Part shown: piece by piece, positions 18,641 to 37,254 of the stretch
How the letters are laid out: every line of letters begins with the position of its first letter
Position numbering within the stretch: position 1 is the first letter of the stretch
From: Thermodesulfobacteriota bacterium
GTDB taxonomy: Bacteria > Desulfobacterota_D > UBA1144 > Nemesobacterales > UBA2774
Assembly (NCBI GenBank): GCA_963422265.1
Contig: OY729416.1
Location: 1,376,001 to 1,440,000, forward strand
DNA length: 64,000 nt
Reading direction: 5' to 3'
The notes under the pieces: model-generated
Databases searched by the model: none
Seen by the model: the letters and a program-made list of their open reading frames with translations, nothing else
Told to the model about the DNA's origin: nothing
Made by a program: the position numbers and the translations under genes

Positions 18641-18697
18641 AAATAGAGTTAGCTCTATAGCAAGTATCTGAGCTTTATGATAATTTATCTAGCGCTA

Positions 18698-19474: not shown

Positions 19475-19509
19475 TAGGATTGACTATGCGGGAATGAGTA
19501 TTAGTTTTT

Positions 19510-19590
19510 ATCCAAGGGATACCTACGAGGGATTGAAACTTTGGATTGTTATAAGATTGTTCAGCATATCTACCTATAAGGAATGAATGG
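19510..19590 (+). ncRNA. Degenerate CRISPR mini-array (crRNA-like regulatory RNA, CreA/CreR type)
   Basis: TACCTACGAGGGATTGAAAC (19520-19539, 18/20 to the repeat 3' end), ~21-nt spacer 19540-19560, then CTACCTATAAGGAATGAA (19570-19587). Confidence 0.8.
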
Positions 19591-19592
19591 TC

Positions 19593-19649
19593 TTGACAGT
19601 TTTGATATGATGTTCATCTTAATTTTATGCTATTTGGATTGTTGTAAGA
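19593..19649 (+). promoter_or_regulatory. Putative promoter region containing the mini-spacer target site
   Basis: TTGACA 19593; TTGATA(19602)-18-TATGCT(19626); target TTTGGATTGTTGTAAGA 19633-19649. Confidence 0.6.
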
Positions 19650-19684
19650 AACCTACCAAACACTAAATTGTTTAGGAGTAAACA

Positions 19685-19750
19685 ATGAAACACATAAGCG
19701 TAAAAATCGAAGAGCAAAGAGAAAAAGTTGTCACTAAGAAATCAATATAG
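19685..19750 (+). CDS. Candidate 21-aa leader or mini ORF (MKHISVKIEEQREKVVTKKSI)
   Basis: Strong TAGGAG RBS correctly spaced before ATG 19685. Confidence 0.35.
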   Translation: MKHISVKIEEQREKVVTKKSI

Positions 19751-19953
19751 ATACTCTTGCGTGCAAAATGACAGCGAAACATACGTTGATCCGACAACTC
19801 ATTGCTCTCGCAACCAACGCAGTTGTTTGCATCCCATAGGTTTACAGGGGAAGAGAAGAGGAGATGATTCAAGCAATGACAAAACCCAACAAGATGTTGA
19901 GAATAGGCTGAATGGGTGTGGATAAAATATCAGAGAAGGTTATTGTGTAAGAG

Positions 19954-21315: not shown

Positions 21316-21317
21316 TT

Positions 21318-22343
21318 ATGTCTAAACATATTATTGGACTTGTACTTATAGACGCACCGTTTTCGGCTCTTAATAACGCAGGGACAGAAGCCTCTCAATC
21401 AACTGAAAACATAGTTGCTGTAAAAACATTAAGAAAGGGGCGGAATGTGTATCCCTATGTATCAGGACAGGCTTGGAGAAATTGGTGGAGGATTACTCTT
21501 GAGAAAGAACTTGTATGGAATCTTTCTCCCATTACACGGGGAACGAAAACAGCTTTTACTGCTGCAGATCCGGTGGAATATCCTGATGACGATCTTTTTG
21601 GTTATATGCGTGCGCAGTCAGAAGAGGTTCACCAAGAAGGCAAGAAGCCTAAAAAACAAAACATTACAGTTACTCGTTTATCTCCTCTCAAATGTTCTCC
21701 TCTTATCTCAATTGAGTCTCAACAGCCAACTAACGACTTTGGAGTTATGGCACGACAAGAGGACAATCCTGTTCCTTATGAACATCAATTTTATTCAACT
21801 GTCTTAAAAGGAATTTTTTCACTTGATTTAAGCGCCGTCGGCACATTTTGGAACGTTAATAAAACGGGTTACAAAAATGTCTCTGAACAATATGCCGAAA
21901 AGATCAGAGAAAACGGTGGAATACAGTCTGATGATAAAACTCATTGGATTCTGCCAAAAGATATACGGCTAAAAAGAAGCAAAGACGTAATTAAGGCTTT
22001 GTCTGTAATAAGCGGTGGGGCGAATTTAACCTCTCATCTAACGGATGTTACACCTAAGTTAATAATTCTTGGAGTAAATGAGGGTGGAAATCATCCATTT
22101 ATGCATCTGGTGGTAGAGAAACAAGGGAAAGGTGAATTTAGCATTCCAGCATTTAAGCAGGTTTTAGAAGATTATAAGGATAGGCTGGATTCTATCTACG
22201 TAGGGAGGAGAGAAGGTTTTATGGATGAGCTAGATGACTCTCTAACTAATCTCGCCAAATATAATGAACGAGTGATCTACAGTTCGCCTAATAATGTTAT
22301 TAGTGAACTGACCGAAAGCCTTGGACAATACTTAGATGGGTAG
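21318..22343 (+). CDS. cas7: Cas7 (Cst2/DevR family)
   Basis: YPYVSGQAWR, DDLFGYMRA, VTRLSPL. Confidence 0.93.
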   Translation: MSKHIIGLVLIDAPFSALNNAGTEASQSTENIVAVKTLRKGRNVYPYVSGQAWRNWWRITLEKELVWNLSPITRGTKTAFTAADPVEYPDDDLFGYMRAQSEEVHQEGKKPKKQNITVTRLSPLKCSPLISIESQQPTNDFGVMARQEDNPVPYEHQFYSTVLKGIFSLDLSAVGTFWNVNKTGYKNVSEQYAEKIRENGGIQSDDKTHWILPKDIRLKRSKDVIKALSVISGGANLTSHLTDVTPKLIILGVNEGGNHPFMHLVVEKQGKGEFSIPAFKQVLEDYKDRLDSIYVGRREGFMDELDDSLTNLAKYNERVIYSSPNNVISELTESLGQYLDG

Positions 22344-22362
22344 GTAAGAAGGCAAGTAACCA

Positions 22363-22989
22363 ATGGAAGTCCTAAGGATTCACATAACGGGTTGGGTTGC
22401 TTCATTTCGCAACCCTTTATTTGTAAGTGGGTATCAGCCTACTTTATCTGTTCCACCAGTTTCGACCGTTTACGGTTTAATCTCGGCAGCTTACGGAGAC
22501 TACATAACTCCTGGCCGAGCAAACATAGGGTATGTTTTTCACAGTGAAGGTAGAGCAGTTGATTTGGAAACCATATATGAATTTGGGGGAGGTTTAGATG
22601 CAAAGCCCAACATCATAAAACGTGAATTTCTCTTATCACCGCATCTATATATCTATACCCCAGATATATGGTTGAAAGAAGTATTTGAGGAACCTCATTA
22701 TCCTTTACTATTGGGTCGTTCCACAGAACTTGCAACAGTTGAATCAATAGAAAAGATCGTATTAAAAAAAGTAACCGAAACAAATTATTGTGGCACCCTG
22801 ATACCATTTCCAAATGACCAAATATCTGGGACTTTGCATGCTCTTCCAACTCACTTTACTCAAGACCAACCTCGTCGTCCCCAGGGTATTCGTGCTTTTC
22901 TTGCTGTTACAAAAAGAAATGGTTACGTAGGGGATGCATGGGAAGATAATGATAAGGGGTGGGGTGTTTATTTTTATGGGAAAGGATAG
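22363..22989 (+). CDS. cas5: Cas5
   Basis: ASFRNP...PTLSVPPVSTVYGLISAA, LLGRS. Confidence 0.93.
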   Translation: MEVLRIHITGWVASFRNPLFVSGYQPTLSVPPVSTVYGLISAAYGDYITPGRANIGYVFHSEGRAVDLETIYEFGGGLDAKPNIIKREFLLSPHLYIYTPDIWLKEVFEEPHYPLLLGRSTELATVESIEKIVLKKVTETNYCGTLIPFPNDQISGTLHALPTHFTQDQPRRPQGIRAFLAVTKRNGYVGDAWEDNDKGWGVYFYGKG

Positions 22990-25231
22990 CTCCGAACCTA
23001 TTCTTGCTAAAAGTGAACCTAAAGAAAGTTTATTAGATCATACCAAGAACTGCATTGAAGTCTATTTGAGCATTAGAGATAGAATGCCGTTCTTGGGAGA
23101 CACATCTGGAAATTCTGATTTCTTTGAACATTTGTATTATGCAGTTGCTTTGCATGATCTAGGAAAAGCCGCAGAAGGTTTTCAGGATCAGCTTAAACCT
23201 AACGGTAGAAGATGGAATTATAGACATGAAATACTATCAGCTGGATTCACAGTTGGAGTGCAGTTGCCAGATATAGCTAAACAGGCAATTGGGCTGTCAG
23301 TCCTTACACACCATAAAGATATTAAAACTCTTAGGAGTAATTATCCATGCTTTCCAGAAAGGAACCCAGGCTTTGCAACTTATCAGAAAAAAGTGAAAGA
23401 AATGAAAGCAAATTGGGAACAAATAATTCAAATTCAAAACTACATAATAAAGATGTGTCCTGAGAACGAATGCCGATTTGAGCCTGTTGAAGATACTGGT
23501 GAAGTAATAAATGCTTACGAAAGTTATCTCTTGCCCTATTATAAGAATATTGAAAACGGGGACTCTACCGACTTACGGAACAACTATGGAATGCTTATGC
23601 GTGGGTGTTTAATTGCATGCGATCATCTGGCTTCGGATAGTTCGGGAGAAAATAAAATAATCTGTGCTTTAGAAAATTTAGATGGAGCTTTAAAAAGTAA
23701 TATTAGGGATAGGAACATAAAATGGAATAGCGTGCAAAAATCCTCTATGGATACTCATGGCAATTTAATGCTTTCTGCTCCTACGGGGTCGGGGAAAACA
23801 GAAGCATCTATGTTATGGAGTAGCATTAATCAGAATAAGACAAATGGTAAGAGAGTATTTTACGTATTGCCTTATACCGCTAGCATAAATGCAATGTATA
23901 AGAGATTGAAAGGAGTATTAACAGGTGAGAGAGTGTGTATGTTGCACGGCAAAGCATCTTACTTTCATTATAGATCTCTTGCTAATTGGGAAGATGATTA
24001 TTTCACAAGGCAAACTACTGTCAAAAAAATACAGAGCTTATCTCGAAAGATATACAGACCATACAAGGTATTAACACCATTCCAATTACTTAAATCTTTT
24101 TTTGGCATCAAGGGTTTTGAAATGCAGTTTGCTGAGATGTCAAATGGATTGTTCATCTTTGATGAAATTCACGCTTACGATGAGCATACCACCGCATTGA
24201 TAATAAAGATGATTGAGAAATTATATAAAGACTACAATGCAAAAATTTGTGTTATGACTGCCACTATGCCTAAATTTCTCAAAGATAAGATTGAAGATGT
24301 TTTTTGTAGAGCGGACTATAATGACGTGGCAATGCCATCAGATGAGAGGAATAAATCATATACGCGTCATAAGGTTAAGATGTTGGGTGATAATATGCTT
24401 GGAGTAATCCCACATATAAAAGAGGAATTAGAGCGCGGCAGAAAAGTAATGGTTGTGTGCAATACGGTAAAGAAGTCACAAGAAGTTTATAAAGAGTTAC
24501 AAGATGACAAGACCAAGTCCGTGCTTATACACAGCAGATTTATTCTGAAGGACAGAGAACGAATAGAGGCCAATTTGAAAGATGTTGATTTAATTGTGGG
24601 GACTCAAGCCGTTGAAGTTTCGCTTGATATTGACTTTGATGTTTTATTTACAGAGCCGGCGCCGTTGGATTCTCTAATTCAAAGGTTTGGCAGGATCAAT
24701 CGTAAGAACAAAAAAGGTATTTGTAATGTATTTATTTGTAAAATAGGGGGTAAAAGTGATAGATATATCTATTCACAGAAAATTGTTGATAAGACAGTTG
24801 AGGTGCTTGTAAATATTGATATTTTATATGAGTCTGAAATACAAGGCTTGATAGACACCGTATATGGTCAAGGGTATACAGAGGTTCAGGAAGAGAAATA
24901 TAATTATATAAGAGATACTTTTGAAACACATTTAAACTCTTTAAATCCATTCATTGAAAATCCCGAAAGTGAGCAAGAGTTTGAAGGATTATTTAAGAGT
25001 GTTGAAGTTGTTCCTGAGCAATTTCAGAATGAGTATTTAGAATGCGTTGATCAGAAAAAATATTATGAATCTATGTCTTATATAACTCAAATATCTCAAC
25101 GACGATTCCAGAGATTAAAGAAGGAAAAGTTGATCAATATTATTGATGGAAACTGTATTGTTAATGTTGGATATGATGAAAAACTCGGATTATTGGTTGA
25201 AAAGGAAAATCATCCGTATAAGGAATTCTAA
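22976..25231 (+). CDS. cas3: Cas3 HD nuclease-helicase
   Basis: LHDLGKA, RHE, APTGSGKTE, DEIH, MTAT, QRFGRINR; start probably MGKDS at 22976. Confidence 0.96.
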   Translation: MGKDSSEPILAKSEPKESLLDHTKNCIEVYLSIRDRMPFLGDTSGNSDFFEHLYYAVALHDLGKAAEGFQDQLKPNGRRWNYRHEILSAGFTVGVQLPDIAKQAIGLSVLTHHKDIKTLRSNYPCFPERNPGFATYQKKVKEMKANWEQIIQIQNYIIKMCPENECRFEPVEDTGEVINAYESYLLPYYKNIENGDSTDLRNNYGMLMRGCLIACDHLASDSSGENKIICALENLDGALKSNIRDRNIKWNSVQKSSMDTHGNLMLSAPTGSGKTEASMLWSSINQNKTNGKRVFYVLPYTASINAMYKRLKGVLTGERVCMLHGKASYFHYRSLANWEDDYFTRQTTVKKIQSLSRKIYRPYKVLTPFQLLKSFFGIKGFEMQFAEMSNGLFIFDEIHAYDEHTTALIIKMIEKLYKDYNAKICVMTATMPKFLKDKIEDVFCRADYNDVAMPSDERNKSYTRHKVKMLGDNMLGVIPHIKEELERGRKVMVVCNTVKKSQEVYKELQDDKTKSVLIHSRFILKDRERIEANLKDVDLIVGTQAVEVSLDIDFDVLFTEPAPLDSLIQRFGRINRKNKKGICNVFICKIGGKSDRYIYSQKIVDKTVEVLVNIDILYESEIQGLIDTVYGQGYTEVQEEKYNYIRDTFETHLNSLNPFIENPESEQEFEGLFKSVEVVPEQFQNEYLECVDQKKYYESMSYITQISQRRFQRLKKEKLINIIDGNCIVNVGYDEKLGLLVEKENHPYKEF

Positions 25232-25732
25232 GTGAATGAGGTAGCAATTACTGGAAATATAGTCCAATACTATTTCATTTGTAAGAGGAAAATATGGCTT
25301 AGTTCAAGACAAATATCGCCTGACCAAGATAATGCCCACTTAGAATTAGGCAGATTCATAAGCGAAACCACGTATAAAAGAAATAAAAAAGAGATTAGAT
25401 TAGAAAACATTATCGTTGACCTTTCAAAACTTGATAGTGAAAAGGTGGTTGTCGGAGAAGTAAAAAAAAGCTCCAAAGCTTCGGAAGCAGCTAGGATGCA
25501 GCTTGCGTTTTATCTTTACACCCTAAGAGAATATGGGATAGATGCTGAAGGCGAGCTTCTTTTTCCAAAGGAGAAGAAAAAGGAAAAGGTGCTTTTAGAT
25601 GAAGGGCTTACACAGAAACTTGAAAATGCAATTGAGGAGATAAAAACCATCGCAGCAGGAGATGTGCCACCGCCTGCGGTTAAAATCAGATATTGCACGA
25701 ACTGCGCCTACAGGGAGTTTTGCTGGAGCTAG
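25232..25732 (+). CDS. cas4: Cas4
   Basis: YYFICKRKIW, EVKKS, QLAFYL, CTNCAYREFCW. Confidence 0.95.
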   Translation: MNEVAITGNIVQYYFICKRKIWLSSRQISPDQDNAHLELGRFISETTYKRNKKEIRLENIIVDLSKLDSEKVVVGEVKKSSKASEAARMQLAFYLYTLREYGIDAEGELLFPKEKKKEKVLLDEGLTQKLENAIEEIKTIAAGDVPPPAVKIRYCTNCAYREFCWS

Positions 25733-25775
25733 TTTGGACTTTAGTGGAATAATCGTTCAACAACTTTATCTTTAC

Positions 25776-25960
25776 TCACTCCTCTCTTACTATATGCAAT
25801 CGTACTAAAGAAGGAGCGGACTCATCGGAATCATAATGATACTTTAGAGCATCTTTTATATTACTTCTTAGCTTCTTCAAGAGTGTCACCTTCGGTAAAT
25901 ATAGAATAACCAAGTGCTCTTGCCGTATATCCACCTTCTGGATCATCTTCTACCATAAAC
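25776..25960 (-). pseudogene. HicB-like antitoxin remnant
   Basis: Minus-strand FMVEDDPEGGYTARALGYSIFTEGDTLEEAK, frameshift, then NIKDALKYHY...VRLHIVREE. Confidence 0.65.
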
Positions 25961-26017
25961 TACCTTACAATTCCGGTGCTTTTGCAAAGTTGATATCTAT
26001 ACGCCATATTATAGTTT

Positions 26018-26395
26018 ATGAGAAGAACCCAGCTTTATTTGAAAGAAGAGCAGTGCGATTATCTGTTAAAAGAGTCCCTTAATAAATGGAAAAACATTGC
26101 GGGGATTATAAGAGAATTGATAGACGTTAGTATCTCTTCAGAACGGAATAAATTGGGGCGCAGATCTTTCTGGAACGTCTGCGAAGACGGCTTTTTAACC
26201 GGGATCAAAAACGGATCAGTTTCTCATGACAAGTTTATATATATAAATCTAAATTGGATATTGATGAATAGCAAGAGAGTTTTTATTGATACAAGTGCGT
26301 TTATTGCATTAACCCGATCGCACAAATTTTTCAATTTACAATAGATTAAGAATAAGAGAAGTTTTCGCATTTGATGTGCATTTTACCAGTTTGGC
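26018..26395 (+). pseudogene. Decayed RHH antitoxin plus internally deleted PIN (VapC) toxin
   Basis: MRRTQLYL..IIRELID (RHH-like); VFIDTSAFIAL (PIN N-terminus); IREVFAFDVHF (PIN C-terminus) only about 50 nt later. Confidence 0.7.
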
Positions 26396-26437
26396 AAGTT
26401 AAAAATCATTGATAATTATACTAAGAATAGCTAGCAG

Positions 26438-27439
26438 ATGGCTAATAGAATATTTATTTTCAGCAACGGGGAACTAAAGAGAAAGCAGAACACACTTTTC
26501 TTTGAGAATGGGGATGGCGAGAAAAAGTATATTCCCGTTGAAACTACTCAGGAGTTGATGGTGTTCGGGGAGGTAAGTCTTAATAAAAAGTTTCTGGATT
26601 TCGCTTCACAGAACCAGATGATCCTTCACTTCTTTAACTATTACGGCTATTACTCAGGAAGCTACTATCCGAGGGAACACCTAAACTCGGGACACATGAT
26701 CCTAAGGCAGGCGGAAGCTTACCTTGGTACGGATAGAAGAATAGGGATTGCGCGAAAGATTGTTCAAGGTGCAGTCCGGAATATTCTTAAAGTTATTGAT
26801 TACTACGTAAGAAGAAAAGAGGATGAACAAGTTAGAGAAGTAAGGTTTCAAATAGATGACCTTTATGCAAAAATTGCTGATCAGGATTCGACAGACACGC
26901 TGATGGCTATTGAGGGAAATATAAGAGACAGATACTACTCTGCCTTTGACAAGATTGTTGAAAACGACACTTTTAAATTTGAAAGTAGGACGAGACGCCC
27001 TCCCAAAAATAGGATGAATGCTTTAATCAGTTTTGGAAATTCACTCCTTTATACAACCGTGCTTAGCGAAATTTATAAAACTCACCTTGATCCTCGTATC
27101 GGTTTTCTTCACACGACCAATTTCAGAAGGTTTAGTTTGAACCTTGACATAGCAGAGATATTTAAGCCCGTGCTCGTTGATAGAATGCTGTTTTCCTTGA
27201 TAAACAAAGGCGAGCTGAAGGCTAAACATTTTGAGAAGAGGATGGGAGGAGTGGTTATGAATGAGAGTGGAATGAAGATTTTTTCAAAGGAATTTGAAGA
27301 GAGGCTTCAAAGAACCGTGAAACACAGAAAGATTGGCAAGCCCGTATCAAACAGAAGGCTCATGAGGCTTGAGCTTTATAAGCTGGAAAAGCACCTGATC
27401 GGCGAAGAAGAATATAAGCCCTTTGTATGGGAGTGGTAA
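26438..27439 (+). CDS. cas1: Cas1 (type I-B)
   Basis: FFNYYGYYSGSYYP, NALISFGNSLLY, FSLNLDIAEIFKP. Confidence 0.97.
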   Translation: MANRIFIFSNGELKRKQNTLFFENGDGEKKYIPVETTQELMVFGEVSLNKKFLDFASQNQMILHFFNYYGYYSGSYYPREHLNSGHMILRQAEAYLGTDRRIGIARKIVQGAVRNILKVIDYYVRRKEDEQVREVRFQIDDLYAKIADQDSTDTLMAIEGNIRDRYYSAFDKIVENDTFKFESRTRRPPKNRMNALISFGNSLLYTTVLSEIYKTHLDPRIGFLHTTNFRRFSLNLDIAEIFKPVLVDRMLFSLINKGELKAKHFEKRMGGVVMNESGMKIFSKEFEERLQRTVKHRKIGKPVSNRRLMRLELYKLEKHLIGEEEYKPFVWEW

Positions 27440-27443
27440 AGCA

Positions 27444-27707
27444 ATGTTCGTGATACTTGTTTATGATGTGGGGCAGAAGAGGGTCGCCAAAGTTTTAAGG
27501 ACTAGCAGAAAGTATCTTAACTGGGTTCAAAACTCGGTTTTGGAAGGAGAGCTTACAAAAGCGCAATACGAAACCTTAAAGTTCGAATTAAATGGTATAA
27601 TAAAAGAGAAGTATGATTCTCTTATCTTTTATACTTTTAGAACGAGGAAGTATTCTCTAAGGGAGTTAATTGGGGTTCAAAAAGGTGGAGAAGAGGTATT
27701 TATCTAA
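27444..27707 (+). CDS. cas2: Cas2
   Basis: MFVILVYDV, WVQNSVLEG. Confidence 0.96.
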   Translation: MFVILVYDVGQKRVAKVLRTSRKYLNWVQNSVLEGELTKAQYETLKFELNGIIKEKYDSLIFYTFRTRKYSLRELIGVQKGGEEVFI

Positions 27708-27896
27708 GGTTTGAGTTTGCTTCGGTATCTTCAGTCTATGTGTAATAAAGTAAAAATGGCGGTTCTTTGACTGAATGCTACTTTTTATATATGTTAAATG
27801 ATTTGAGGCTGTTGTAACTCGTGTCGATTTTAATTAGAGGATCATTATACCGCTCTTTGAAAACTAAATATTCAATAGTTTCAGTGGATGGGATGC
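27708..27896 (+). promoter_or_regulatory. CRISPR leader
   Basis: AT-rich non-coding segment between cas2 and the first repeat. Confidence 0.75.
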
Positions 27897-30800
27897 CTTT
27901 TTTGACTACCTATAAGGGATTGAAACAGCGTAAACTTAGATCACTTTTCAAAGCCATTTTCAACTTTTTTGACTACCTATAAGGGATTGAAACCTGTGCA
28001 TCTGTAATTTACCTCCATTTTACAACCTCCTTTCTTTTTTGACTACCTATAAGGGATTGAAACATCACTAAAATTTGGCATCTCGCCTCCTTATGGCGGC
28101 TTTTTTGACTACCTATAAGGGATTGAAACTCCCCTTCCCGGATCGCCTCGCCGTAGCCGTCCCCGACTTTTTTGACTACCTATAAGGGATTGAAACTTGT
28201 CGATCTTCAGGGGAGCGTAGCAGTTCGTTCTCCCTTTTTTGACTACCTATAAGGGATTGAAACTTGCCATTGCGGTACGCTCCCCCATAGCCGTCCCCTC
28301 TTTTTTGACTACCTATAAGGGATTGAAACTCGAAAATATCCCCCGCTCCTAAATTACGGGTACCTTCTTTTTTGACTACCTATAAGGGATTGAAACCTGC
28401 CTTCACGGCGCGCACTACAGGCGCCGCCGCCAACTTTTTTGACTACCTATAAGGGATTGAAACTAGAGATTTTGCTCGGGTCGAAAGAATCGGGGGTTGC
28501 TTTTTTGACTACCTATAAGGGATTGAAACGTAATTCGCATAATACAACCTCCTAGTAATTTGATTGCTTTTTTGACTACCTATAAGGGATTGAAACTGAT
28601 GGTGGCAGCGTCGAAAGAAGAAATTGAAAGTGACTTTTTTGACTACCTATAAGGGATTGAAACGCATAAGGAGGTAGGACATGAAAGATATCAGAGGATA
28701 TCTTTTTTGACTACCTATAAGGGATTGAAACACTCTCCCGTATGTCCAGGCCACGAGAGCGAGCCGTCCTTTTTTGACTACCTATAAGGGATTGAAACTT
28801 GCCATTGCGGTACGCTCCCCCATAGCCGTCCCCTGCTTTTTTGACTACCTATAAGGGATTGAAACTTGTCCTGTGCCTCGTCCAACAGAGAGTAAACCCA
28901 GTCCTTTTTTGACTACCTATAAGGGATTGAAACCTCGTAATCTCGCTCTGCCTTTTCTAGAGCATCGCCCCTTTTTTGACTACCTATAAGGGATTGAAAC
29001 AGTTGAAATGAATTCTAAATGTTCGAATCCAGTCATTCTTTTTTGACTACCTATAAGGGATTGAAACTAGAGGTGGACTACCTCTACGATGAAATTGAAG
29101 AAGACTTTTTTGACTACCTATAAGGGATTGAAACGTTGTCGTTCGCCTCGTCCAACAGGGCGTAAACCCAGCTTTTTTGACTACCTATAAGGGATTGAAA
29201 CTGATTGGACTTAACCCTACACACTTCTCGGGTCACCTTTTTTGACTACCTATAAGGGATTGAAACTGAAGATCGACAATGGCTGTGGGAAGAGGCAATC
29301 GCCTTTTTTGACTACCTATAAGGGATTGAAACTAAAAATAATGATTAAGCCAATCTTCACAATCGCCAACTTTTTTGACTACCTATAAGGGATTGAAACA
29401 GACAATTCCCTCGTACCTATCTCTGCGGAGTAGTTTACTTTTTTGACTACCTATAAGGGATTGAAACAATAGTATAAAGTATACTATCTACATATCAAAC
29501 AAGACTTCTTTGACTACCTATAAGGGATTGAAACCCGTTTTTGCTTCGTTTTTCTCACAGGGGCGTTCATGGCTTCTTTGACTACCTATAAGGGATTGAA
29601 ACTCCCCGATGTGCCACGCGTGCCCGTCGCCGTCCCCCTCCTTCTTTGACTACCTATAAGGGATTGAAACACATTGAATCAGCATAAGAAGGATTAGCCT
29701 TGTCCACTTCTTTGACTACCTATAAGGGATTGAAACTCTCAAGTCTCTTGTTACGACTGGTCGTGTTCGGAAGCTTCTTTGACTACCTATAAGGGATTGA
29801 AACAACAATAGAATAGTTAATAAAATGATTATAATCATAACTTCTTTGACTACCTATAAGGGATTGAAACTGCGATACGAGTTTCCTTTGCCTTCGCCAT
29901 CATGGCCTTCTTTGACTACCTATAAGGGATTGAAACTCAAGAACAATTTTTTTATTTCTGATCCCATCAGGGACTTCTTTGACTACCTATAAGGGATTGA
30001 AACCGATTCTACCCTCAGAATCGCGATAGGTTTGATGCGGCTTCTTTGACTACCTATAAGGGATTGAAACTGTTCTTTCCTCCTTATGCGGGCGGTTTAT
30101 ACGCCCCTTCTTTGACTACCTATAAGGGATTGAAACTATTTCTAATGGGTACGGGATCCTCGGGGAGGCAAGCTTCTTTGACTACCTATAAGGGATTGAA
30201 ACTGCCTTCTTCTGCTGCAGGTAGCCCTGTAGTTTGGCCCTTCTTTGACTACCTATAAGGGATTGAAACCCTTGTGCCAAAACGCAGTTTTCATATTGTG
30301 TCCGTCTTCTTTGACTACCTATAAGGGATTGAAACATCGGCACTTTGAGAGAAGAAGATCGACAAGCGTTAGCTTCTTTGACTACCTATAAGGGATTGAA
30401 ACTAGAAAAGGATTGTGCTCGTATAGATAAACTACTTCCTTCTTTGACTACCTATAAGGGATTGAAACTGGGAACGGACTTTGTGAAAAGAGCTCAAGGC
30501 GGGACTTCTTTGACTACCTATAAGGGATTGAAACCGTCGTCGATCAACTCGTTCAACAGCGCGTAAACCGCCTTCTTTGACTACCTATAAGGGATTGAAA
30601 CGCGCCCATATGACCTATACCGGTCTGAAGTCCACGAGCTTCTTTGACTACCTATAAGGGATTGAAACTGATTCTTCAGATCCCAGTAAAATTTCTACAG
30701 GTTGGCTTCTTTGACTACCTATAAGGGATTGAAACCCCGTAACGGCGGCGGGGCGTAATTGGTAATTTTACTTCTTTGACTACCTATAAGGGATTGAAAC

Positions 30801-31733
30801 GCATAGGAGGAAAGAAATAGGAGGTAATAAAATGTATCTTCTTTGACTACCTATAAGGGATTGAAACCATTGTGCCAAAACGCAGTTTTCCAATTCTGCC
30901 CGTCCCTTCTTTGACTACCTATAAGGGATTGAAACCCCGTAACGGCGGCGGGGCGTAATTGGTAATTTTACTTCTTTGACTACCTATAAGGGATTGAAAC
31001 CTCTACAAAATAGTACGATTTGAAGAAGGTTCCACATTCTTCTTTGACTACCTATAAGGGATTGAAACTTGCAAGGAAAGCTCAAACGGGTGTCTGGATT
31101 AGGGCTTCTTTGACTACCTATAAGGGATTGAAACGTCGTGTTCGTGATAGAATCCAGAAAGTAGAGCAATCCTTCTTTGACTACCTATAAGGGATTGAAA
31201 CACGTAGAAACTGGCAGCCAGCCATATGAAACCGCCGCCTTCTTTGACTACCTATAAGGGATTGAAACTGCGATACGAGTTTCCTTTTCCTTTGCCATCG
31301 TGGCACTTCTTTGACTACCTATAAGGGATTGAAACTGGAAATGTTATCTTAAGATGCCTGGAGTGGTTCATTCTTCTTTGACTACCTATAAGGGATTGAA
31401 ACTCCGAAAAACAGGTATCCACACATTTTCCATCTTCTCCTTCTTTGACTACCTATAAGGGATTGAAACTGAGCAAAGTCATAGACGAAGCAGGCGACAA
31501 GTCAACTTCTTTGACTACCTATAAGGGATTGAAACTGGAAATGTTATCTCAAAATGCCTGGCGTTGTTCATCTTCTTTGACTACCTATAAGGGATTGAAA
31601 CGCGCGAACTCCCGGAACATCTGTCTGACTTTGTCGCTTCTTTGACTACCTATAAGGGATTGAAACGCAGGATCGAGTAGCCTTAGAATCATATGTTGCG
31701 ATTCTTCTTTGACTACCTATAAGGGATTGAAAC
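27897..31733 (+). CRISPR. CRISPR array, 58 repeats / 57 spacers, repeat CTT(T/C)TTTGACTACCTATAAGGGATTGAAAC
   Basis: Direct count of 30-nt repeats, spacers 35-40 nt; the 3' ATTGAAAC handle and the leader position give orientation. Confidence 0.99.
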
Positions 31734-31859: not shown

Positions 31860-32137
31860 ATAAGGCTGTAAGGTGTAAAGGGGATAGCATTTATCCGGCG
31901 ATAGTAGATCAATGCTCTGGTTGGGGTGGATTTTGAGGACAGAAATCCTGACGAGGGAAAAATTTTTTATTTCGCTTGCCGCAATTAGGATTTTCGGTCA
32001 AGCGGCTGGGAATAGGTAAAGGGGGATTTTGGCTCACGCCGGATAATAGTATGTTTCAGCGGGAGTTTTTTCCAGTAGAAGATTTAGATCAGGGACTGAT
32101 CGCAGGGCGAGTGCGGTGGGTGTTTAATAAGGTGTGA
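31860..32137 (+). pseudogene. S24/LexA-like C-terminal domain remnant of a phage repressor
   Basis: Across frameshifts: VRCKGDSIYPAIVD, LVGVDFEDRNPDEGKIF, FSVKRL...LTPDN...IAGRVRWVFNKV*. Confidence 0.7.
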
Positions 32138-32142
32138 TAGTT

Positions 32143-32276
32143 CGAACTGTGATTTGAATGATTAAATGATGGGCTGTGATAGGAAGGATAAAGATTTAAA
32201 TCCCACTATATCCCCCTTTTTGAAAGGGGGAGACGATAAGGAAGCGCCCTCACCCTCTCCCAGGGGGGAGAGGGTC
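32143..32276. repeat. Composite palindromic repeat, copy 1
   Basis: ATCCCCCTTTTTGAAAGGGGGA and CCCTCACCCTCTCCCAGGGGGGAGAGGG hairpins. Confidence 0.85.
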
Positions 32277-32277
32277 A

Positions 32278-32727
32278 CTACAAATTGGAAAGCAAGCGTA
32301 GTAGGACTTCAGCGATTTCGTCTTCATCGTCTTGGGCTAACATGAGGAAAGGGCGTGGTGGAATGGTTACTTTTTTGTTTTTACCGGCTTTGCCGCCGAG
32401 CTGATGAATGCGGGCGTAGGGTTTGTTGGTTCCTACAATGGCGGAGAGTTTGTCAGAGTCAGCAGATATGGAGCCTAGCAATCCACGACCACCTGATAGA
32501 TTTAGTATGGGGTGGTAGCCTCTTTTTTTACCTCCCTTTTTCTGATTGGCGGTAGCTTTAGATAGAGGAGTCCATTTGGGTCTTCCTTCTTGTTCGAAGT
32601 TTTCGGCGATGGCGTCAAGCATGATGTCTGCGATGTCTCTCATTTCTGCAGATAAGTCTTGTGATTTGCGTAGGAGCGCTCTTGCGAGGTCGTCAATTTC
32701 TTTTGTGTTGGCAGAGATTGTTATCAT
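32278..32727 (-). CDS. Phage virion morphogenesis protein (Mu gpG-like)
   Basis: NFEQEGRPKWTPLS, VGTNKPYARIHQLGG, IPPRPFL. Confidence 0.92.
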   Translation of the reverse strand: MITISANTKEIDDLARALLRKSQDLSAEMRDIADIMLDAIAENFEQEGRPKWTPLSKATANQKKGGKKRGYHPILNLSGGRGLLGSISADSDKLSAIVGTNKPYARIHQLGGKAGKNKKVTIPPRPFLMLAQDDEDEIAEVLLRLLSNL

Positions 32728-32743
32728 GGTAGTGTAGTGTAAG

Positions 32744-32990
32744 GATTGAAAGGGGAAAGATCAAATCCCCCTGTGTCCCCCTTTTCTAAAGGGGGAGAAG
32801 ATGAGGAAGTGCCCTCACCCTGACCCTCTCCCAGGGGGAAAGGAGGTCTGAACTAGGGTTTTTAGGATGGAATGAGGGGCTAATGATTGGAAGGATAAAG
32901 ATCAAATCATCCTGTATCCCCCTTTTCTAAAGGGGGAGAAGATGAGGAAGCTCCCTCACTCTGTATTCCTCTCCCAGAGAGAGAGGGAGC
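32744..32990. repeat. Composite palindromic repeat, two tandem units
   Basis: GATCAAATCCCCCTGTGTCCCCCTTTTCTAAAGGGGGAGAAGATGAGGAAG..CCCTCAC twice. Confidence 0.9.
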
Positions 32991-33224
32991 TGAAAGAGGG
33001 GGTGGGTGGTCGGGGGAATCTTTGTGGTTGGTGGGGATTTTGTTTGTATTGGGCGAAAATGATAAAGAAGAGCCTGTAATCATTATGTTTTCTGTTTTTA
33101 AAAGCGCTTAACTCCATGCCAAACCATCTTGTCCAAAGCCAGAAAATCGCTAAAAGGTATAAGTTTGTAAGGTTTTCAGGGGAGCTGGGTAGCTGAGCAG
33201 TTCAGCAGTTTTGCTGATTAGGCA

Positions 33225-33445
33225 AGCTCACCCCTTCTACATGGTTCGGCAGGTTCACCAATCGCTCGGGGTAGCGTAACCAGTTCACTTACCACAAGCT
33301 TATGAATCGTGAGGGGAAGCTAGAAAAGCCCGCAATAACAGGCAGTTAACAGCATTTCTGTTGATTGGAGAAGCTCGCCCATTCTTATATAGTTCGGCAG
33401 GTTCACTAACCGCTCGGGACAGCGCAACCAGCTCGCTGACCGCTC
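33225..33445. repeat. Imperfect ~70-nt duplication (GTTCGGCAGGTTCAC..CGCTCGGG..AGCG.AACCAG)
   Basis: Copies at about 33225-33293 and 33372-33441. Confidence 0.75.
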
Positions 33446-33539
33446 AGGATACCACCCTGAAGAGCCGACTCAGACAGGAGCTATCGCCCCTTTCCAATCG
33501 TGCCAAACCATCTTTCAAACTATAATGAGGGGGGTTGAT

Positions 33540-33810
33540 ACCCTCACCCTGTGTCCCTCTCCCAGGGGGAAAAGGGGGTCTGAACTAGGATTTTTAGGAT
33601 TGAATGAGGGGCTGTGATTGAAAGGGGAAAGATCAAATGCCCCTAAATCCCCCTTTTCTAAAGGGGGAGAAGGCAGAGAATCGCCCTCACCCTGTGTCCC
33701 TCTCCCGGAGGGAAAGGATGTCTGAACTAAGATTTTTAGGATTGAATGAGAGGCTATGATTGAAAGGGGAAAGATCAAATGCCCCTAAATCCCCCTTTTC
33801 TAAAGGGGGA
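33540..33810. repeat. Composite palindromic repeat, two near-identical tandem units
   Basis: CCCTCACCCTGTGTCCCTCTCCC..TCTGAACTA..GCCCCTAAATCCCCCTTTTCTAAAGGGGGA twice. Confidence 0.9.
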
Positions 33811-33824
33811 TTGTGTGAGGGAAT

Positions 33825-33860
33825 AAAAAAGCCCTGAGCTTCTTCAAGCTCAAGGCTTTT
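33825..33860 (-). terminator. Intrinsic terminator
   Basis: Minus strand AAAAGCCTTGAGCTT-GAAG-AAGCTCAGGGCTTTTTT. Confidence 0.85.
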
Positions 33861-33990
33861 AGTAATGCTTGAGACTGCGCCTGATAGTCTCATGGGACAT
33901 GCGAGAAGGACTCAAACACCCCTTCTACGAAACTTTTTGGGGTCAGGCACTCCCTCAGCTACCGCCTTGAGATTTTGCCGCATATCCTTA
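33825..33990 (-). ncRNA. Candidate structured small RNA downstream of MuF
   Basis: Bounded by promoter and terminator; several hairpins; no convincing ORF. Confidence 0.6.
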
Positions 33991-33996
33991 CTTCTA

Positions 33997-34025
33997 AATA
34001 TATGACAAACAATAAAGCGTGTCAA
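33997..34025 (-). promoter_or_regulatory. Near-consensus sigma70 promoter
   Basis: Minus strand TTGACA(34025-34020)-17 nt-TATATT(34002-33997), starting 3 nt after the gpF stop. Confidence 0.8.
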
Positions 34026-34028
34026 GTA

Positions 34029-35273
34029 TTATTCCCTGACGATTGTTCCTTGACTTATTTTTTTCTTTTTCTGCTTAGGCTGTATTCGGTGAAATGATTT
34101 CACATATACTTCCGTTCCATCCTTTGTTACCTTGATCGGTATCATGTATAGCCTATTATTCTCCTTATAAATAAACTCAAGGTGATTTTCGGTATTTGCA
34201 GGGCGAACAACCAATGCCTCATCTATAACATCCTGTATTTGAGAATAATCTTCAACCTTTATACCAGGGTGATCTCTTACTGTATCAGCTGATAATCTTA
34301 CGGTTTGCGTATTAGTCCCGAGAGCTTTTTTAATCTCAGTTGGTATAACGGCAATGGGGAAAAAGTCGTCTGTTCTTACCTCTCTCATTTCTACAAACAT
34401 CCTAAAAGCGGGACCCGTGACTGTGCCTTTGACGTATTGTTTGGCAATATCGTAGTCGTATTTGTTTAGGTCTGGTTGATAGGCGGCTTTGTAGGGGTTA
34501 TAGTCAAAGCTAGGTTGTGGGAAGATTTGCTTGCCATTAGGGAGTTGGTAACCGCGCACCTTTACTTGTCTGACTTCACCGGTGCTTTTGTTTACGAGAG
34601 TTTGAGTGGAGCGGATCATCTTGCCGGATTGTGAAGCCCCCTTTGGTGGACTCTTTTGAGTGGAGAGGACTTTGAGTTTACGGCGTCCGACGTCGCGTTT
34701 GGACAGGGAGCGTTTGGAGCAGCGGCAGTTGAAGTCAAGTGGTGGTGTAAAGGTGTCCCAGAAGGGGTCGTCAAGGGGGAATACCTTGCCGTGTAGCTCT
34801 GCGTGAGCGGGGCGGACGCGGTCGTCTAGGACTGCGACATATTGTCCATAGGGGCGGTTCTTTTTGTTCTCTTGGAATCTCTCTTCCCTACCGACGGCGT
34901 AGGCAGAGGCAAGATTGGTGTTGTAGATGGTTCGTAGGCGGTGTGGCGAGCCTTCTAGGATACTCTCTGCTTGTCCTTGTGGATTAACAACTATTTTGCG
35001 ACCCCACCAGTCCTTTTTTTTGAGAGTAGGCTCGAGATTTTTACGGAATTGTTGGAAGGTTAGTCCTTTAGCAATAGCATTGTCAACGGCGTTACGGACG
35101 TCTTGCAGGACGTCAGCGCGGACAACGCGAGCGACAGTGAAGGCTTTGGCGTGTGCTTGTTTGAGAGTATCTTGCCAGTTCCATGAGAATGCGTAGCCCT
35201 TGGAGCGGAAGTATTTTATTGCCTTTTCTGGTTTGAGGTTAAAGGCGTAAGTTAGGTCAATTGGTTGGGGCAT
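34029..35273 (-). CDS. Mu gpF-like minor head protein with C-terminal PBECR-like nuclease extension
   Basis: HAKAFTVA, RLRTIYNTN, DDRVRPAH, PPLDFNCRC; ~120-aa tail (DHP..EDY..IQDVID..IKVTKDGTEVYVKSFHR). Confidence 0.88.
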   Translation of the reverse strand: MPQPIDLTYAFNLKPEKAIKYFRSKGYAFSWNWQDTLKQAHAKAFTVARVVRADVLQDVRNAVDNAIAKGLTFQQFRKNLEPTLKKKDWWGRKIVVNPQGQAESILEGSPHRLRTIYNTNLASAYAVGREERFQENKKNRPYGQYVAVLDDRVRPAHAELHGKVFPLDDPFWDTFTPPLDFNCRCSKRSLSKRDVGRRKLKVLSTQKSPPKGASQSGKMIRSTQTLVNKSTGEVRQVKVRGYQLPNGKQIFPQPSFDYNPYKAAYQPDLNKYDYDIAKQYVKGTVTGPAFRMFVEMREVRTDDFFPIAVIPTEIKKALGTNTQTVRLSADTVRDHPGIKVEDYSQIQDVIDEALVVRPANTENHLEFIYKENNRLYMIPIKVTKDGTEVYVKSFHRIQPKQKKKKISQGTIVRE

Positions 35274-35288
35274 GGTTTCTCCTCCGTG

Positions 35289-35380
35289 TCTGAACTGTGA
35301 TTTGTGGGATTAGATGAGGGGCTATGATTGAAAGGATAAGGATCAAATCCCCCTGTGTCCCCCTTTTCTAAAGGGGGAGT
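35289..35380. repeat. Composite palindromic repeat copy between the portal fragment and gpF
   Basis: TCTGAACTGTGATTT..GATCAAATCCCCCTGTGTCCCCCTTTTCTAAAGGGGGAG. Confidence 0.88.
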
Positions 35381-35391
35381 ATGTGAGGTTT

Positions 35392-35676
35392 TCATTTCTT
35401 CTCTCCGTTTAGGCGTCCCCAGATATGGGAGGTGAAGGCACCTTTTTGTAGTTGTTGGGTGATGGAGGCAGTGTCTAGTTCTGGGTAGAGCTGGGCTAGT
35501 TTGGATGAGAAGTCTGAGAAGTTCGTAGATTTCTCTGCGAGGTCAAATATGACGTCAAGTAGGGCTTCTGCTTGTTGTTGTAGCGCGGGGGCGTCATCGC
35601 CTATCTCTTGTTCGAGAGAGTCTAGGGCGGGGTCTGAGAAGGAAGGATCAAATCCCCCTGTGTCCCCCTTTTTCAA
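35392..35676 (-). pseudogene. C-terminal fragment of a Mu gp29-like portal (DUF935)
   Basis: KLAQLYPELD..LQKGAFTSHIWGRLN tail and position before gpF; the apparent N-terminus is repeat DNA. Confidence 0.7.
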
Positions 35677-35755
35677 AGGGGGAGAAGATAAGGAAGTGCC
35701 CTCACCCTGTGTCTCTCTCCCGGATTCGGCAAGCTCATTAACCGAGGGAGAAGGG
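35645..35755. repeat. Composite palindromic repeat copy at the portal breakpoint
   Basis: GGATCAAATCCCCCTGTGTCCCCCTTTTTCAAAGGGGGAG..CCCTCACCCTGTGTCTCTCTCCC. Confidence 0.88.
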
Positions 35756-36246
35756 GATATTAGGGACGAGGAGCTTGAGGTTTTACTTGAAGTGGAGCGG
35801 GAGTTGGAATCACTGCTAGCTACGTTGCAATATCAGCAGCAGGAGTGGATAAGGGTATGGCAGTTGTGTCATACGCAGAGACACGGGCAGGGGATGACAA
35901 TGGGGACGTTGATTCATTCAGAGATATGGAACAATCTACGTATGCTTGGGATACGAGGGGCATGAGAAGGAGCGAGTATTTAGGGTTACGCTTGAAATAG
36001 ATGAGGTGTTTAGGGAGTATGCGGAGAGGGAAGAGAAGAGGACATCAGCGGTGAGAACAGCACGCTCCACACGGAGAGCGATAGCAAGCGAGATTCCTCA
36101 ACCCCGTCCCGTTCGGAATGAGAGGGGACAACAAGACATAAGGATCCAACGTTACAAATCCTTGACTCAGCAAATATCAAAGGGTAACCTAAAAGGTTAA
36201 ACTTAACACAATCTTAACACTAACTTTTTCCAGAGGAGTTTCCCCA

Positions 36247-37254
36247 ATGTCAACTAAGGTTGGTATCAACGGATTCGGAAGGATCGGGAGGCACGTTCTA
36301 CGCATCGGGCTTAAAGAGAAAGAATTAGAGTTTGTAGGAATAAATGATATAAGCGACCCGAAAACGCTAGCGCACCTCTTCAAATACGATTCTACTTTCG
36401 GACCTTGCAAAAGTGAGGTTAAATCTGAGAACGGCCATATTTTAGTAGATAACAAACCTATTAGGGTCTTTTCAGAGAAAAACCCTTCGGATATTCCCTG
36501 GGGCGAAACAGGTGCACAGGTTATCGCCGAGTCAAGTGGCGTTTTCAGAAGTAAGGAGCAAGCATCTGCTCACCTTGGTAAAACCGTAAAAAAGGTAATT
36601 ATTACCGCCCCTGCAAAGGGCAACGTGGATTTCACTACAGTTCTTGGCGTAAATCAGGATAAGTATGAAAACGCCAGTCATAATATTATTTCTAACGCAT
36701 CATGCACGACTAACTGTTTTGCGATGATAGTTAAAGTCCTCCACGAAAACTTCAGAATATGCAAAGGGCAGATGACAACGGTTCATTCATATACCAACGA
36801 TCAACAGGTATTAGACGCTCCTCATAAGGACCTGAGAAGGTCTCGCGCCGCCGCTGTGTCTATCATACCGACGAGTACTGGAGCTGCAGACGCTATTAAC
36901 ATCATTTACCCTGAACTAAAAGGAAAAATGAGCGCCATCTCCATGAGGGTTCCAACGGCAAACGTTTCAGTAGTAGATTTTACTTGCGAGGTTGAAAAAC
37001 CTACCAACGCAGAAGAGGTGAACGAGAAATTTAGAACGGCTTCAAAAGAGGAACTTAACGGATATTTAAGATACGTTGGCGAGGAGCTAGTATCTTCTGA
37101 CTTTATTGGAGACTCACATTCCGCGTCTATTGACGCACCCCTTACTTCAGTAGTAGAAGGTAATCTTGTAAAGGTCATAGGCTGGTATGACAACGAGTAC
37201 GGATACTCATCGAGAGTAGTAGATTTACTCAAATTTATAGGAGACCAAATTTGA
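36247..37254 (+). CDS. gap: Glyceraldehyde-3-phosphate dehydrogenase
   Basis: GINGFGRIGR, SNASCTTNC, WYDNE. Confidence 0.97.
   Translation: MSTKVGINGFGRIGRHVLRIGLKEKELEFVGINDISDPKTLAHLFKYDSTFGPCKSEVKSENGHILVDNKPIRVFSEKNPSDIPWGETGAQVIAESSGVFRSKEQASAHLGKTVKKVIITAPAKGNVDFTTVLGVNQDKYENASHNIISNASCTTNCFAMIVKVLHENFRICKGQMTTVHSYTNDQQVLDAPHKDLRRSRAAAVSIIPTSTGAADAINIIYPELKGKMSAISMRVPTANVSVVDFTCEVEKPTNAEEVNEKFRTASKEELNGYLRYVGEELVSSDFIGDSHSASIDAPLTSVVEGNLVKVIGWYDNEYGYSSRVVDLLKFIGDQI

Follow-up and report, generated by a model that had tools for sequence, protein, structure and literature searches.

A conserved small RNA gene linked to the BECR-like tail of Mu-type gpF proteins: candidate antidote or regulator of a putative phage RNase domain

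What holds a phage-encoded ribonuclease (RNase) domain in check when no immunity gene follows it? This question is raised by a 64,000-nt stretch of contig OY729416.1 from a Thermodesulfobacteriota bacterium (hereafter the window, in whose coordinates all positions are given), where a prophage remnant carries the gene of gpF, a Mu-type head protein with a nuclease-like tail, followed on the same strand by a promoter, a folded RNA and a terminator. The initial annotation of this DNA, made from the sequence alone, proposed that the RNA stands in for the usual immunity gene and neutralises the tail by a logic resembling that of type III toxin–antitoxin (TA) systems. Our analysis indicates with high confidence that the unit is a real, conserved small RNA (sRNA) gene linked to the tail. 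Because of this linkage to tail genes, the RNA can be read as an antidote or regulator of the tail that acts through its fold, a reading to which we assign a probability of about one half. The unit and the gene preceding it comprise the following features.

34029..35273, minus strand: gpF, Mu gp30-type MuF minor head protein, 414 aa, intact, with its TAA stop at 34031-34029 (Pfam, PHROG and TIGR matches)
34032..34391, minus strand: C-terminal tail of gpF, a PBECR3-like putative RNase domain, residues ~295-414 (profile and structure search)
33997..34025, minus strand: sRNA promoter, TTGACA at 34025-34020, 17-nt spacer, TATATT at 34002-33997 (read directly)
33863..33995, minus strand: sRNA body, ~130 nt (covariance model R1, 104.5 bits, E 4.6e-27)
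33987-33979 with 33903-33895, minus strand: closing helix P1
33954-33952 with 33941-33939, minus strand: hairpin P2
33926-33921 with 33909-33904, minus strand: hairpin P3
33891-33886 with 33876-33871, minus strand: terminal hairpin T
33948-33943 with 33884-33879, minus strand: loop–loop pairing between the P2 loop and the T loop
33825..33860, minus strand: strong intrinsic terminator, 15-bp hairpin followed by UUUUUU
33915..33983, minus strand: 23-aa open reading frame (ORF) inside the sRNA, not a gene, with its ATG at 33983 and AAGGA one base upstream

The promoter lies where it had been annotated, its TTGACA beginning 3 bases past the gpF stop codon. It is the top promoter-like site in 32000-36300 (11/12), an interval in which such sites are not rare (6 against 4.1 ± 2.0 in shuffled sequence). 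All four hairpins named at the outset are present and correspond to P1b, P2, P3 and T; the closing helix P1 and the loop–loop pairing had been missed. The strong terminator at 33860-33825, a 15-bp hairpin with six U residues, had likewise been read correctly. Folded as a single sequence, the RNA gives a z score of −2.31 without the terminator, with 6/200 shuffles folding equally well, and of −4.47 with it. Since the lone fold and promoter are not compelling, the support for the unit is comparative and comes from the R1 family and its compensatory changes.

Searches for known elements gave no alternative identity. Rfam 15 returned no match in the window at gathering score and none at the element in related loci, and its sub-threshold rows for the RNA reached at best ~15-17 bits against gathering scores of 56-80, with nothing meaningful at E ≤ 10. 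ARAGORN made no tRNA or tmRNA call, either in the window or in the spacers between gpF and the next gene, gpG (F–G spacers), of 12 loci. No tandem repeats were detected in 33780-34028, the only row being a 14-nt × 1.9 stretch at the gpF end, and no flanking inverted repeat was found around the window unit. An origin of the unit as a miniature inverted-repeat transposable element (MITE) was considered and rejected: the first 216 nt after the stop codon are single-copy, and only the trailing MITE part repeats.

The element was first found 3′ of tail genes in same-order relatives, where nhmmer collected 19 distinct copies of ~130 nt. A search of 120 genomes of the phylum with R1, the covariance model built in this analysis, identified 50 copies of this RNA (family 1) in 26 genomes, exactly one of them in the genome of the window. 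The initial annotation had named in advance, as the test of its proposal, a conserved structure 3′ of homologous tail genes; such a structure exists in the R1 family, together with compensatory changes and a promoter of its own. This promoter is present in all 19 aligned copies, including those without an adjoining gpG, as TTGAC(A/T) (TTGAAA in L003), a 16-18-nt spacer and TAnnnT, and it recurs in most of a set of 30 loci read; the window copy has the best promoter among the aligned copies. The 19 aligned RNAs start with ..AAGG.. and carry ACCAGGCGA or AUCAGGCGC as the loop of the terminal hairpin. A U-tract directly follows hairpin T in most copies read, including several orphans (copies without an adjoining tail gene), and in the window copy the intrinsic terminator takes the place of this tract.

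Alignment of the family revealed extensive compensatory change. In alignment A4, 83.4% of cells in the four helices are paired, a value reached by 0/500 shuffles (68.7% after shuffling), both-side changes occur in 20/23 pairs against 14.3 expected (0/500 shuffles), and the covariation score is 0.527 against at most 0.224 with slid partners, figures that overstate independence because A4 was fitted to the model and its sequences are related. The P2 loop, CCUG(G/A), is complementary to the T loop, (C/U)CAGG, in 20/20 copies, pairing as CCUGG–CCAGG in 12 (G:C) and as CCUGA–UCAGG in 8 (A:U); in L107 the corresponding pair is CUUGG with CCAAG. Both motifs were found in 19 of the set of 30 loci, where 17 pairs are Watson–Crick, one is G-U (L096) and one is an A-C mismatch (L085). 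These counts were made by a script anchored on the motifs, MAFFT alone having misaligned the loops. Loops and junctions are nearly identical where the neighbouring proteins share only 30-45% identity; selection thus appears, from these comparisons, to act on the RNA itself.

Beyond the genome set, family 1 was recovered from one viral contig (L132) and two metagenome contigs (L180, L188). The latter two are the only ones upheld by R1 among 58 loose matches of a metagenome pattern scan, the other 56 being chance. The RNA family is absent from Rfam 15, and a literature search, which left out subscription journals and supplementary files, found no description of it.

The linkage of family 1 to the gpF tail was assessed from the protein side in the same 120 genomes. 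The tail query identified 16 genes in 10 genomes; for 15 of them R1 places a match at most ~125 nt from the 3′ end, and the sixteenth (L006, genome G030) has an RNA of a related second family instead. Of the 15 linked RNAs, 14 are convergent to the tail gene, and one, that of the window, is in tandem with it. In 8 loci the stop codon of the tail gene starts 8-9 nt inside the RNA 3′ end, and in one other it starts 3 nt inside; in convergent loci the U-tract of the RNA is the antisense of the final Lys codons of the tail. In three prophage-like loci (L066, L072, L132) the −35 box of the RNA abuts or overlaps the gpG ribosome-binding site or start codon, so that the RNA is antisense to the whole F–G spacer. 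Solo tail genes, which have neither MuF nor gpG, retain the RNA; the link is therefore to the tail and not to gpG. As judged from these loci, the RNA family is a fixed neighbour of the tail domain both in Mu-like phages and in modules consisting of a solo tail and an RNA.

The closest gpF, that of L066/L079 with 54% identity to the window protein, belongs to a locus with the convergent layout, and the tandem order in the window is therefore probably derived. MITEs occupy the place of the original F–G spacer in the window. In one 2.0-Mb genome (G025), 7 tail genes, of which several are solo or truncated, occur alongside 12 RNA copies, in places two in a row, an expansion that resembles selfish TA modules. 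Orphan copies scoring 96-114 bits lie beside ordinary chromosomal genes. Two orphan pairs in genus g14 (L085/L086 and L089/L092; 100-111 bits), with no adjoining tail gene, keep the same neighbours across species.

Is the tail that the RNA accompanies an RNase? Among the effectors that phages are predicted to deliver with the virion, BECR-fold RNase domains in fusion with MuF or portal proteins rank with the commonest. The gpF protein of the window, the only MuF match in the 1.78-Mb genome, is unbroken, as had been annotated: residues 57-186 of its 414 match PF04233 with 96.8 bits (cut-off 29.6; E 1.7e-27), PHROG 220, annotated as 'minor head protein and DNA pilot', covers residues 3-390 (E 8.6e-91), and TIGR01641 is matched at 72.3 bits against a cut-off of 39.65. 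Because Mu gp30 itself ends in a phage-BECR domain, according to the available part of PMC5512222, a MuF protein with a nuclease-like tail represents the standard Mu-type architecture.

Profile searches place the tail close to PBECR3 (PF18812): the whole protein scores 22.0 bits and the isolated tail 24.9 bits (E 1.6e-4 to 2.1e-5), both short of the 30 bits that Pfam sets as the gathering score. By the Pfam rule the tail is thus not a member, and sister group is the more fitting description. An exhaustive HMMER search with residues 250-414 recovered 268 relatives at E ≤ 1e-3 and 55 at E ≤ 1e-10, some of them MuF-fused (~400 aa) and some solo (110-200 aa); a word-based protein search had found only one, so that the exhaustive search was needed. 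Among 80 aligned relatives, MuF is present in 35 and PBECR3 is matched at E ≤ 0.01 in 26 (best E 3.1e-7).

Structural comparison pointed in the same direction. A sequence search of the tail against the PDB gave no match at E ≤ 10. A model built on the alignment of relatives (pLDDT 92, pTM 0.85) retrieved weak Foldseek matches (best E 0.035), with a CDI toxin, BrnT and RelE at the top of the list. A second, Foldseek-independent structure search returned CdiA-CT NC101 (Z 5.8), BrnT (5.6), a Salmonella toxin (5.0), colicin D (4.8 and 4.0) and RelE (~4), Z scores that all remain below 8 and, according to the search tool, may reflect a mere common arrangement. BECR/RelE-ParE-type chains, RelE, YafQ, YoeB and ParE among them, make up most of the top 35 structural matches.

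The tail also keeps the conserved columns of its relatives, namely S328 (Ser in 74/80), H335 (His in 68/80), S393 (Ser/Thr in 75/80), T331, K381, T383 and R396; which of these are catalytic is inferred. In PBECR domains a His in a helix and a Ser/Thr in strand 4 form the active-site configuration (available part of PMC5512222), to which the retained Ser/Thr and His residues of the tail fit. Taken together, the modelled fold and these residues indicate that the tail is probably a catalytic, BECR-fold, PBECR3-like RNase domain. The annotated PBECR-like nuclease tail is thus supported by profile similarity (E 2e-5, below the Pfam cut-off), BECR/RelE structural matches of low Z and retained residues.

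Does an RNA take the place of an immunity gene here? MuF polymorphic toxins of temperate phages, as described in the available parts of two accounts (PMC5576092, PMC12226406), combine a MuF N-terminus with a variable C-terminal toxic domain and have an immunity protein gene next to them. The locus studied here differs: gpG comes next, no conserved ORF lies between, and an RNA gene fills the gap. The order of portal, gpF and gpG seen in the window recurs in 32 other loci, and in 30 of these Mu-type loci, which include some identical phages from two collections, the gpF–gpG gap measures −14 to 258 nt. Since this gap is commonly 100-130 nt, it leaves no room for the usual immunity gene. The description of the RNA as standing 'instead of' an immunity gene therefore rested on the wrong comparison, the next gene in Mu-type gpF loci being gpG. 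In the window the sole ORF after the toxin domain is the 23-aa one, which is unconserved. When the gpF proteins of 10 other phages were tested, PBECR2, PBECR3 or MuF_C was matched at or above cut-off in 4 and more weakly in 2, with no match in 4.

F–G spacers beyond the phylum revealed a second RNA family. Besides the sixteenth tail locus mentioned above (L006), this family-2 element occupies the F–G spacer of a contig from a Desantisbacteria metagenome-assembled genome (MAG; L056) and of a Pasteurellaceae genome (L057). Its 20-nt motif occurs in 24 viral contigs (L108-L131) from unrelated samples, with MuF convergent in 23 of them and the gpG start on the promoter side in 19; the invariance of the motif is an artefact of selecting loci by it. 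The structure comprises a co-varying closing helix, a hairpin ACGGU-GAAUCUCCCN-GCCGU, a variable hairpin and P3, with GGGAG(U/C) at the end of its loop. The closing helix P1 and P3 co-vary, with both-side changes in 12/19 predicted pairs, and in AT-rich phages a U-tract follows the closing helix. Neither Rfam nor a blastn search of 50,697 GenBank phage records gave a match for the family-2 RNA. The two families have in common ..CGGYRAAUCUC.., ..CGUAG.. and a P3 loop ending in GAGU; on this sequence resemblance, homology between them is plausible.

A further element was observed in Neisseria/Haemophilus-type prophages (L020, L028, L029, L033 with two copies, L034), whose F–G spacers hold a ~75-nt tRNA-like element antisense to gpF. 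It has a 7-8-bp acceptor-like stem, a GGTTCGAATCC T-arm and a TATACT-type −10 box beside the gpG start. In Rfam it comes closest to tRNA-Sec (22 bits, E 0.02), a score below gathering, and ARAGORN calls nothing there.

We propose the following working model for family 1. The sRNA gene is a self-contained unit in which a sigma-70-type promoter precedes a ~130-nt RNA and its terminator. This RNA would be made from its own constitutive promoter, also in lysogens in which the late genes are off, and would hold the RNase tail harmless or in check. Its main action would lie in the conserved fold, as a bound inhibitor or a substrate decoy, following a type III-like logic; in the convergent position it may add perfect antisense to the mRNA just past the tail stop codon, following a type I-like logic. 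For the window copy cis-antisense action is impossible, which leaves action in trans or, as the 3′ portion of a gpF transcript, in cis. A function borne by the fold is favoured because loops, junctions and the loop–loop contact stay constant while the adjacent proteins diverge to 30-45% identity, and because orphans are intact and the window copy is also intact, with the best promoter and a new terminator.

A more specific version of this model was considered. The folded RNA opposite the F–G spacer might confer RNA-based immunity to the virion-delivered BECR RNase of gpF, perhaps partly as a tRNA-like decoy; it would shield a lysogen from its own RNase and from that of superinfecting relatives, and orphans and remnants would be kept as anti-phage defence. 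Some features are suggestive of tRNA likeness, namely the direct stacking of P3 on P1, a T-loop-like ..CGAGU loop and the tRNA-like element of Neisseria/Haemophilus-type spacers. We regard this extended version as unlikely in its entirety.

Several observations weigh against an antidote or regulator acting through its fold. On the RNA side, besides the overstated independence of the A4 statistics, the two departures from Watson–Crick loop–loop pairing (L096, L085) both fall outside the first set; the opposite strand of the window unit folds similarly to the sense strand (z −2.10); and the minimum free energy (MFE) is lower on the sense strand in only 12/20 copies, making folding a weak guide to the strand. 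Linkage is loose when viewed from the RNA: among 30 loci, 9 have a tail-like convergent ORF, the window has its tandem tail and ~20 have none. The usual convergent layout by itself suggests plain antisense control and not protein binding. On the protein side, the sub-threshold PBECR3 match and the low structural Z scores are joined by a 4-residue deletion directly before H335, over columns that have Lys in many relatives. Finally, a MITE copy abuts the start codon of gpG in the window and no ribosome-binding site is visible upstream of it, so that the whole remnant may be silent.

The best-surviving alternative, which we consider possible though on balance unlikely, is that the RNA is purely a cis-antisense regulator of the phage late operon. 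In this type I-like scheme it would pair with the mRNA of the F–G spacer and alter gpF or gpG expression, by duplex cleavage or transcriptional interference, and the window copy would be a relic without a target. The anatomy fits well: 14/15 linked copies are convergent with the stop codon 3-9 nt inside the RNA, the −35 box meets the gpG ribosome-binding site or start in L066, L072 and L132, and 23/24 family-2 viral contigs share the arrangement. A parallel exists in the antisense RNA SR6 of SPbeta, which overlaps yonT at the 3′ end and the gene after it at the 5′ end (available part of PMC5848175). Yet antisense pairing needs no conserved sequence, whereas here loops, junctions, loop–loop pairing and a four-helix fold are conserved at 30-45% protein identity. 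Orphans distant from tail genes keep high scores, and the supposed relic in the window is intact (104.5 bits), with the best promoter of the set and a new strong terminator.

It is distinctly unlikely, in our assessment, that the element is an independent phage or host sRNA unrelated to the tail, with other targets or as a portable promoter–terminator cassette, that lodges at the 3′ ends of tail genes. RNA copies do outnumber their presumed partners, occurring 50 times in 26 genomes against tail genes in 10, and the ~20 of 30 RNA loci without a tail-like neighbour point the same way, as do two copies in a row at L007 and L011 and a copy at L095 that is convergent to a 505-aa ORF without a tail-like C-terminus. 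Against this stand the 15 of 16 tail genes that carry the RNA, with a relative of it at the sixteenth, and the solo tail genes that retain it. Family 2 occupies the same position in 23/24 viral contigs from unrelated samples. P1, moreover, co-varies and is not conserved in sequence, a misfit to inverted terminal repeats recognised by a transposase.

Less probable still, and in our view highly unlikely, is that the structure works on the other strand as a cis element of the late mRNA, located in its F–G spacer and governing processing, stability or the coupling of gpG translation, with an incidental promoter and a dead window copy. The element does lie inside the gpF–gpG or tail transcript, in the sense direction, in 14/15 cases; Watson–Crick covariation is blind to strand, and the sense MFE advantage in 12/20 copies is slight. 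The strand of the initial annotation is favoured, however, by three features: the −35 and −10 boxes are conserved on it also where gpG is missing (solo modules, orphans, the window), hairpin T is followed by a U-tract in most copies and several orphans, and at the inner pairs G-U pairs on this strand exceed A-C mismatches by 33 to 14. 

That the 23-aa peptide is the product of the unit and serves as a very small protein for immunity or regulation is scarcely credible: AAGGA precedes the ATG at 33983 and an AEG.PDP part recurs in the same frame in several copies, but the spacing to the ATG is 1 nt (the initial annotation had called it too close), the ATG is present at the site in 2/20 copies only (the window and L067a), stops and frame vary (L064 stops after 13 codons), indels are not multiples of three, and nucleotide conservation explains the recurrence.

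How does the proposed pair compare with known systems? Like Mu gp30, as far as described in the available part of PMC5512222, gpF combines MuF with a C-terminal phage-BECR domain, lies in the order portal, F, G and keeps the His and Ser/Thr residues; a MuF-PBECR protein of this type is predicted there to be packaged in the virion. Unlike in that account, the partner here would be an RNA, and the gene stands in a remnant of two genes plus fragments. In the available parts of accounts that mention PBECR, PMC5512222 among them, the partners of these domains are proteins only.

In type III TA systems such as ToxIN, an array of RNA repeats in tandem precedes the toxin gene within a single operon, and the RNA binds and inhibits the endoribonuclease. 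By analogy, the proposed logic of a folded RNA neutralising an endoribonuclease would be shared, and modules multiply and move in both cases (7 tails and 12 RNAs in G025). The anatomy is nevertheless not that of type III: a repeat array is missing, the position of the RNA is not upstream in an operon (it is downstream in the window and convergent elsewhere), and the putative toxin is of a different fold family. The layout of the 14 convergent loci is type I-like instead.

Among prophage type I pairs, txpA/RatA has a convergent antisense RNA over its 3′ end. Another such pair is yonT/SR6 of SPbeta (available part of PMC5848175). The usual layout of family 1 resembles that of these pairs, with a constitutively promoted RNA of ~100-130 nt that is convergent, overlaps the 3′ end of the toxin gene and reaches towards the next gene. 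The type I arrangement of an RNA opposite to and overlapping the toxin mRNA is found in the 14 related loci, where the ORF overlap is 3-9 nt and the RNA is fully complementary to the 3′ flank; in the window the RNA is on the gpF strand and is not antisense. Family 1 differs further from type I pairs in that its sequence and fold are conserved far beyond what antisense needs, and where those pairs encode a small membrane peptide, the putative toxin here is an RNase domain of 120 residues within a virion protein.

Novelty lies in the candidate RNA partner for a toxin-like RNase, the unusual anatomy and the undescribed RNA family. How the producing cell is shielded from MuF-fused BECR RNases is not addressed in the available part of PMC5512222, and the RNA described here is a concrete candidate shield. 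The RNA class, absent from Rfam 15, displays a rare co-varying loop–loop interaction. If the proposed role is true, it would link polymorphic-toxin immunity, type I and type III antitoxins and phage superinfection control; even as a mere antisense regulator, the RNA would be an unannotated gene within a well-studied type of head module.

The surroundings of the unit show what is left of the phage. The prophage remnant spans ~31900-35830 on the minus strand and comprises, in order, the portal 3′ end, gpF, the RNA unit, MITE-like repeats, gpG and traces of the next gene. It starts ~170 nt past the last repeat of a CRISPR array, and its right flank consists of the genes gap and pgk and an aldolase gene. 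The initial annotation had described an intact unit within a decayed prophage. Its view of the unit holds (104.5 bits), but the ORF-poor stretch at 27896-31733 is the 58-repeat CRISPR array. The neighbouring features are these.

35395..35832, minus strand: 3′ remnant of a gp29-like portal gene, ~80 codons, including the 94-aa ORF at 35392..35676
32278..32727, minus strand: gpG, Mu gp31-type virion morphogenesis protein, 149 aa, intact (PF05069, Phage_tail_S, E 2.1e-27)
32740..33836, no strand assigned: MITE-like copies in the former F–G spacer, starting at 32740, 32881, 33612 and 33754 (repeat families D5, D6, D8)
27896..31733, plus strand: CRISPR array of 58 repeats and 57 spacers, a neighbour outside the module (repeat search; chance expectation none)

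The portal remnant was recognised from a stop-to-stop frame that shares 46-51% identity over ~80 residues (E 1e-14) with the region 5′ of gpF in L064, L066 and L079; a Pfam search with the 94-aa ORF gave no match. The window gpG, like gpF, is 54% identical to its counterpart in L066/L079. PADLOC assigned no family to gpF, gpG or the 94-aa ORF.

Further MITE-like copies near the remnant genes lie at 32175, 35322 and 35627, bringing to seven the copies that flank gpF and gpG. The MITE-like family (window 32175-33836 and 35272-35730) has a CCCCCTTTTCTAAAGGGGGA hairpin core and a CCCTCACCCTG..CTCTCCC arm, with dozens more copies near both contig ends. Two direct repeats of 56 nt each, 82% alike and 148 nt apart (33238-33293 and 33386-33441), lie between MITEs and gpG. 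Contigs of DNA run X2 show clusters of single-base variants within gpF, at 34485-34600 and 34902-35016, and one X2 contig spans 33791-34476, covering the RNA and the tail, without differences. Contigs of a possible RNA run, X1, extend over parts of gap and of the MITEs but not over 33910-35277, and from runs X7 and X8 no contig could be placed here.

The CRISPR array belongs to a complete type I (I-B-like) CRISPR-Cas locus at 18677-31733, with cas6, a CXXC-type large subunit (cas8b), cas7, cas5, cas3, cas4, cas1 and the array. Comparison of its 57 spacers with the rest of the genome and with all fetched loci gave 0 matches and thus no sign of self-targeting of the remnant. One spacer-and-repeat unit of the array is exactly duplicated (30706-30800 = 30906-31000). 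A second instance, after the window, of gpF and gpG beside a CRISPR array is the Desantisbacteria MAG contig L056, where positions 1-1970 hold a 1.5-kb piece of a Mu-like phage between two CRISPR repeats (RF01320 at 66-392 and 1934-1970). This piece begins in mid-gpF, takes in the RNA and gpG and ends within the gene that follows, and is either a giant 'spacer' or an assembly chimera.

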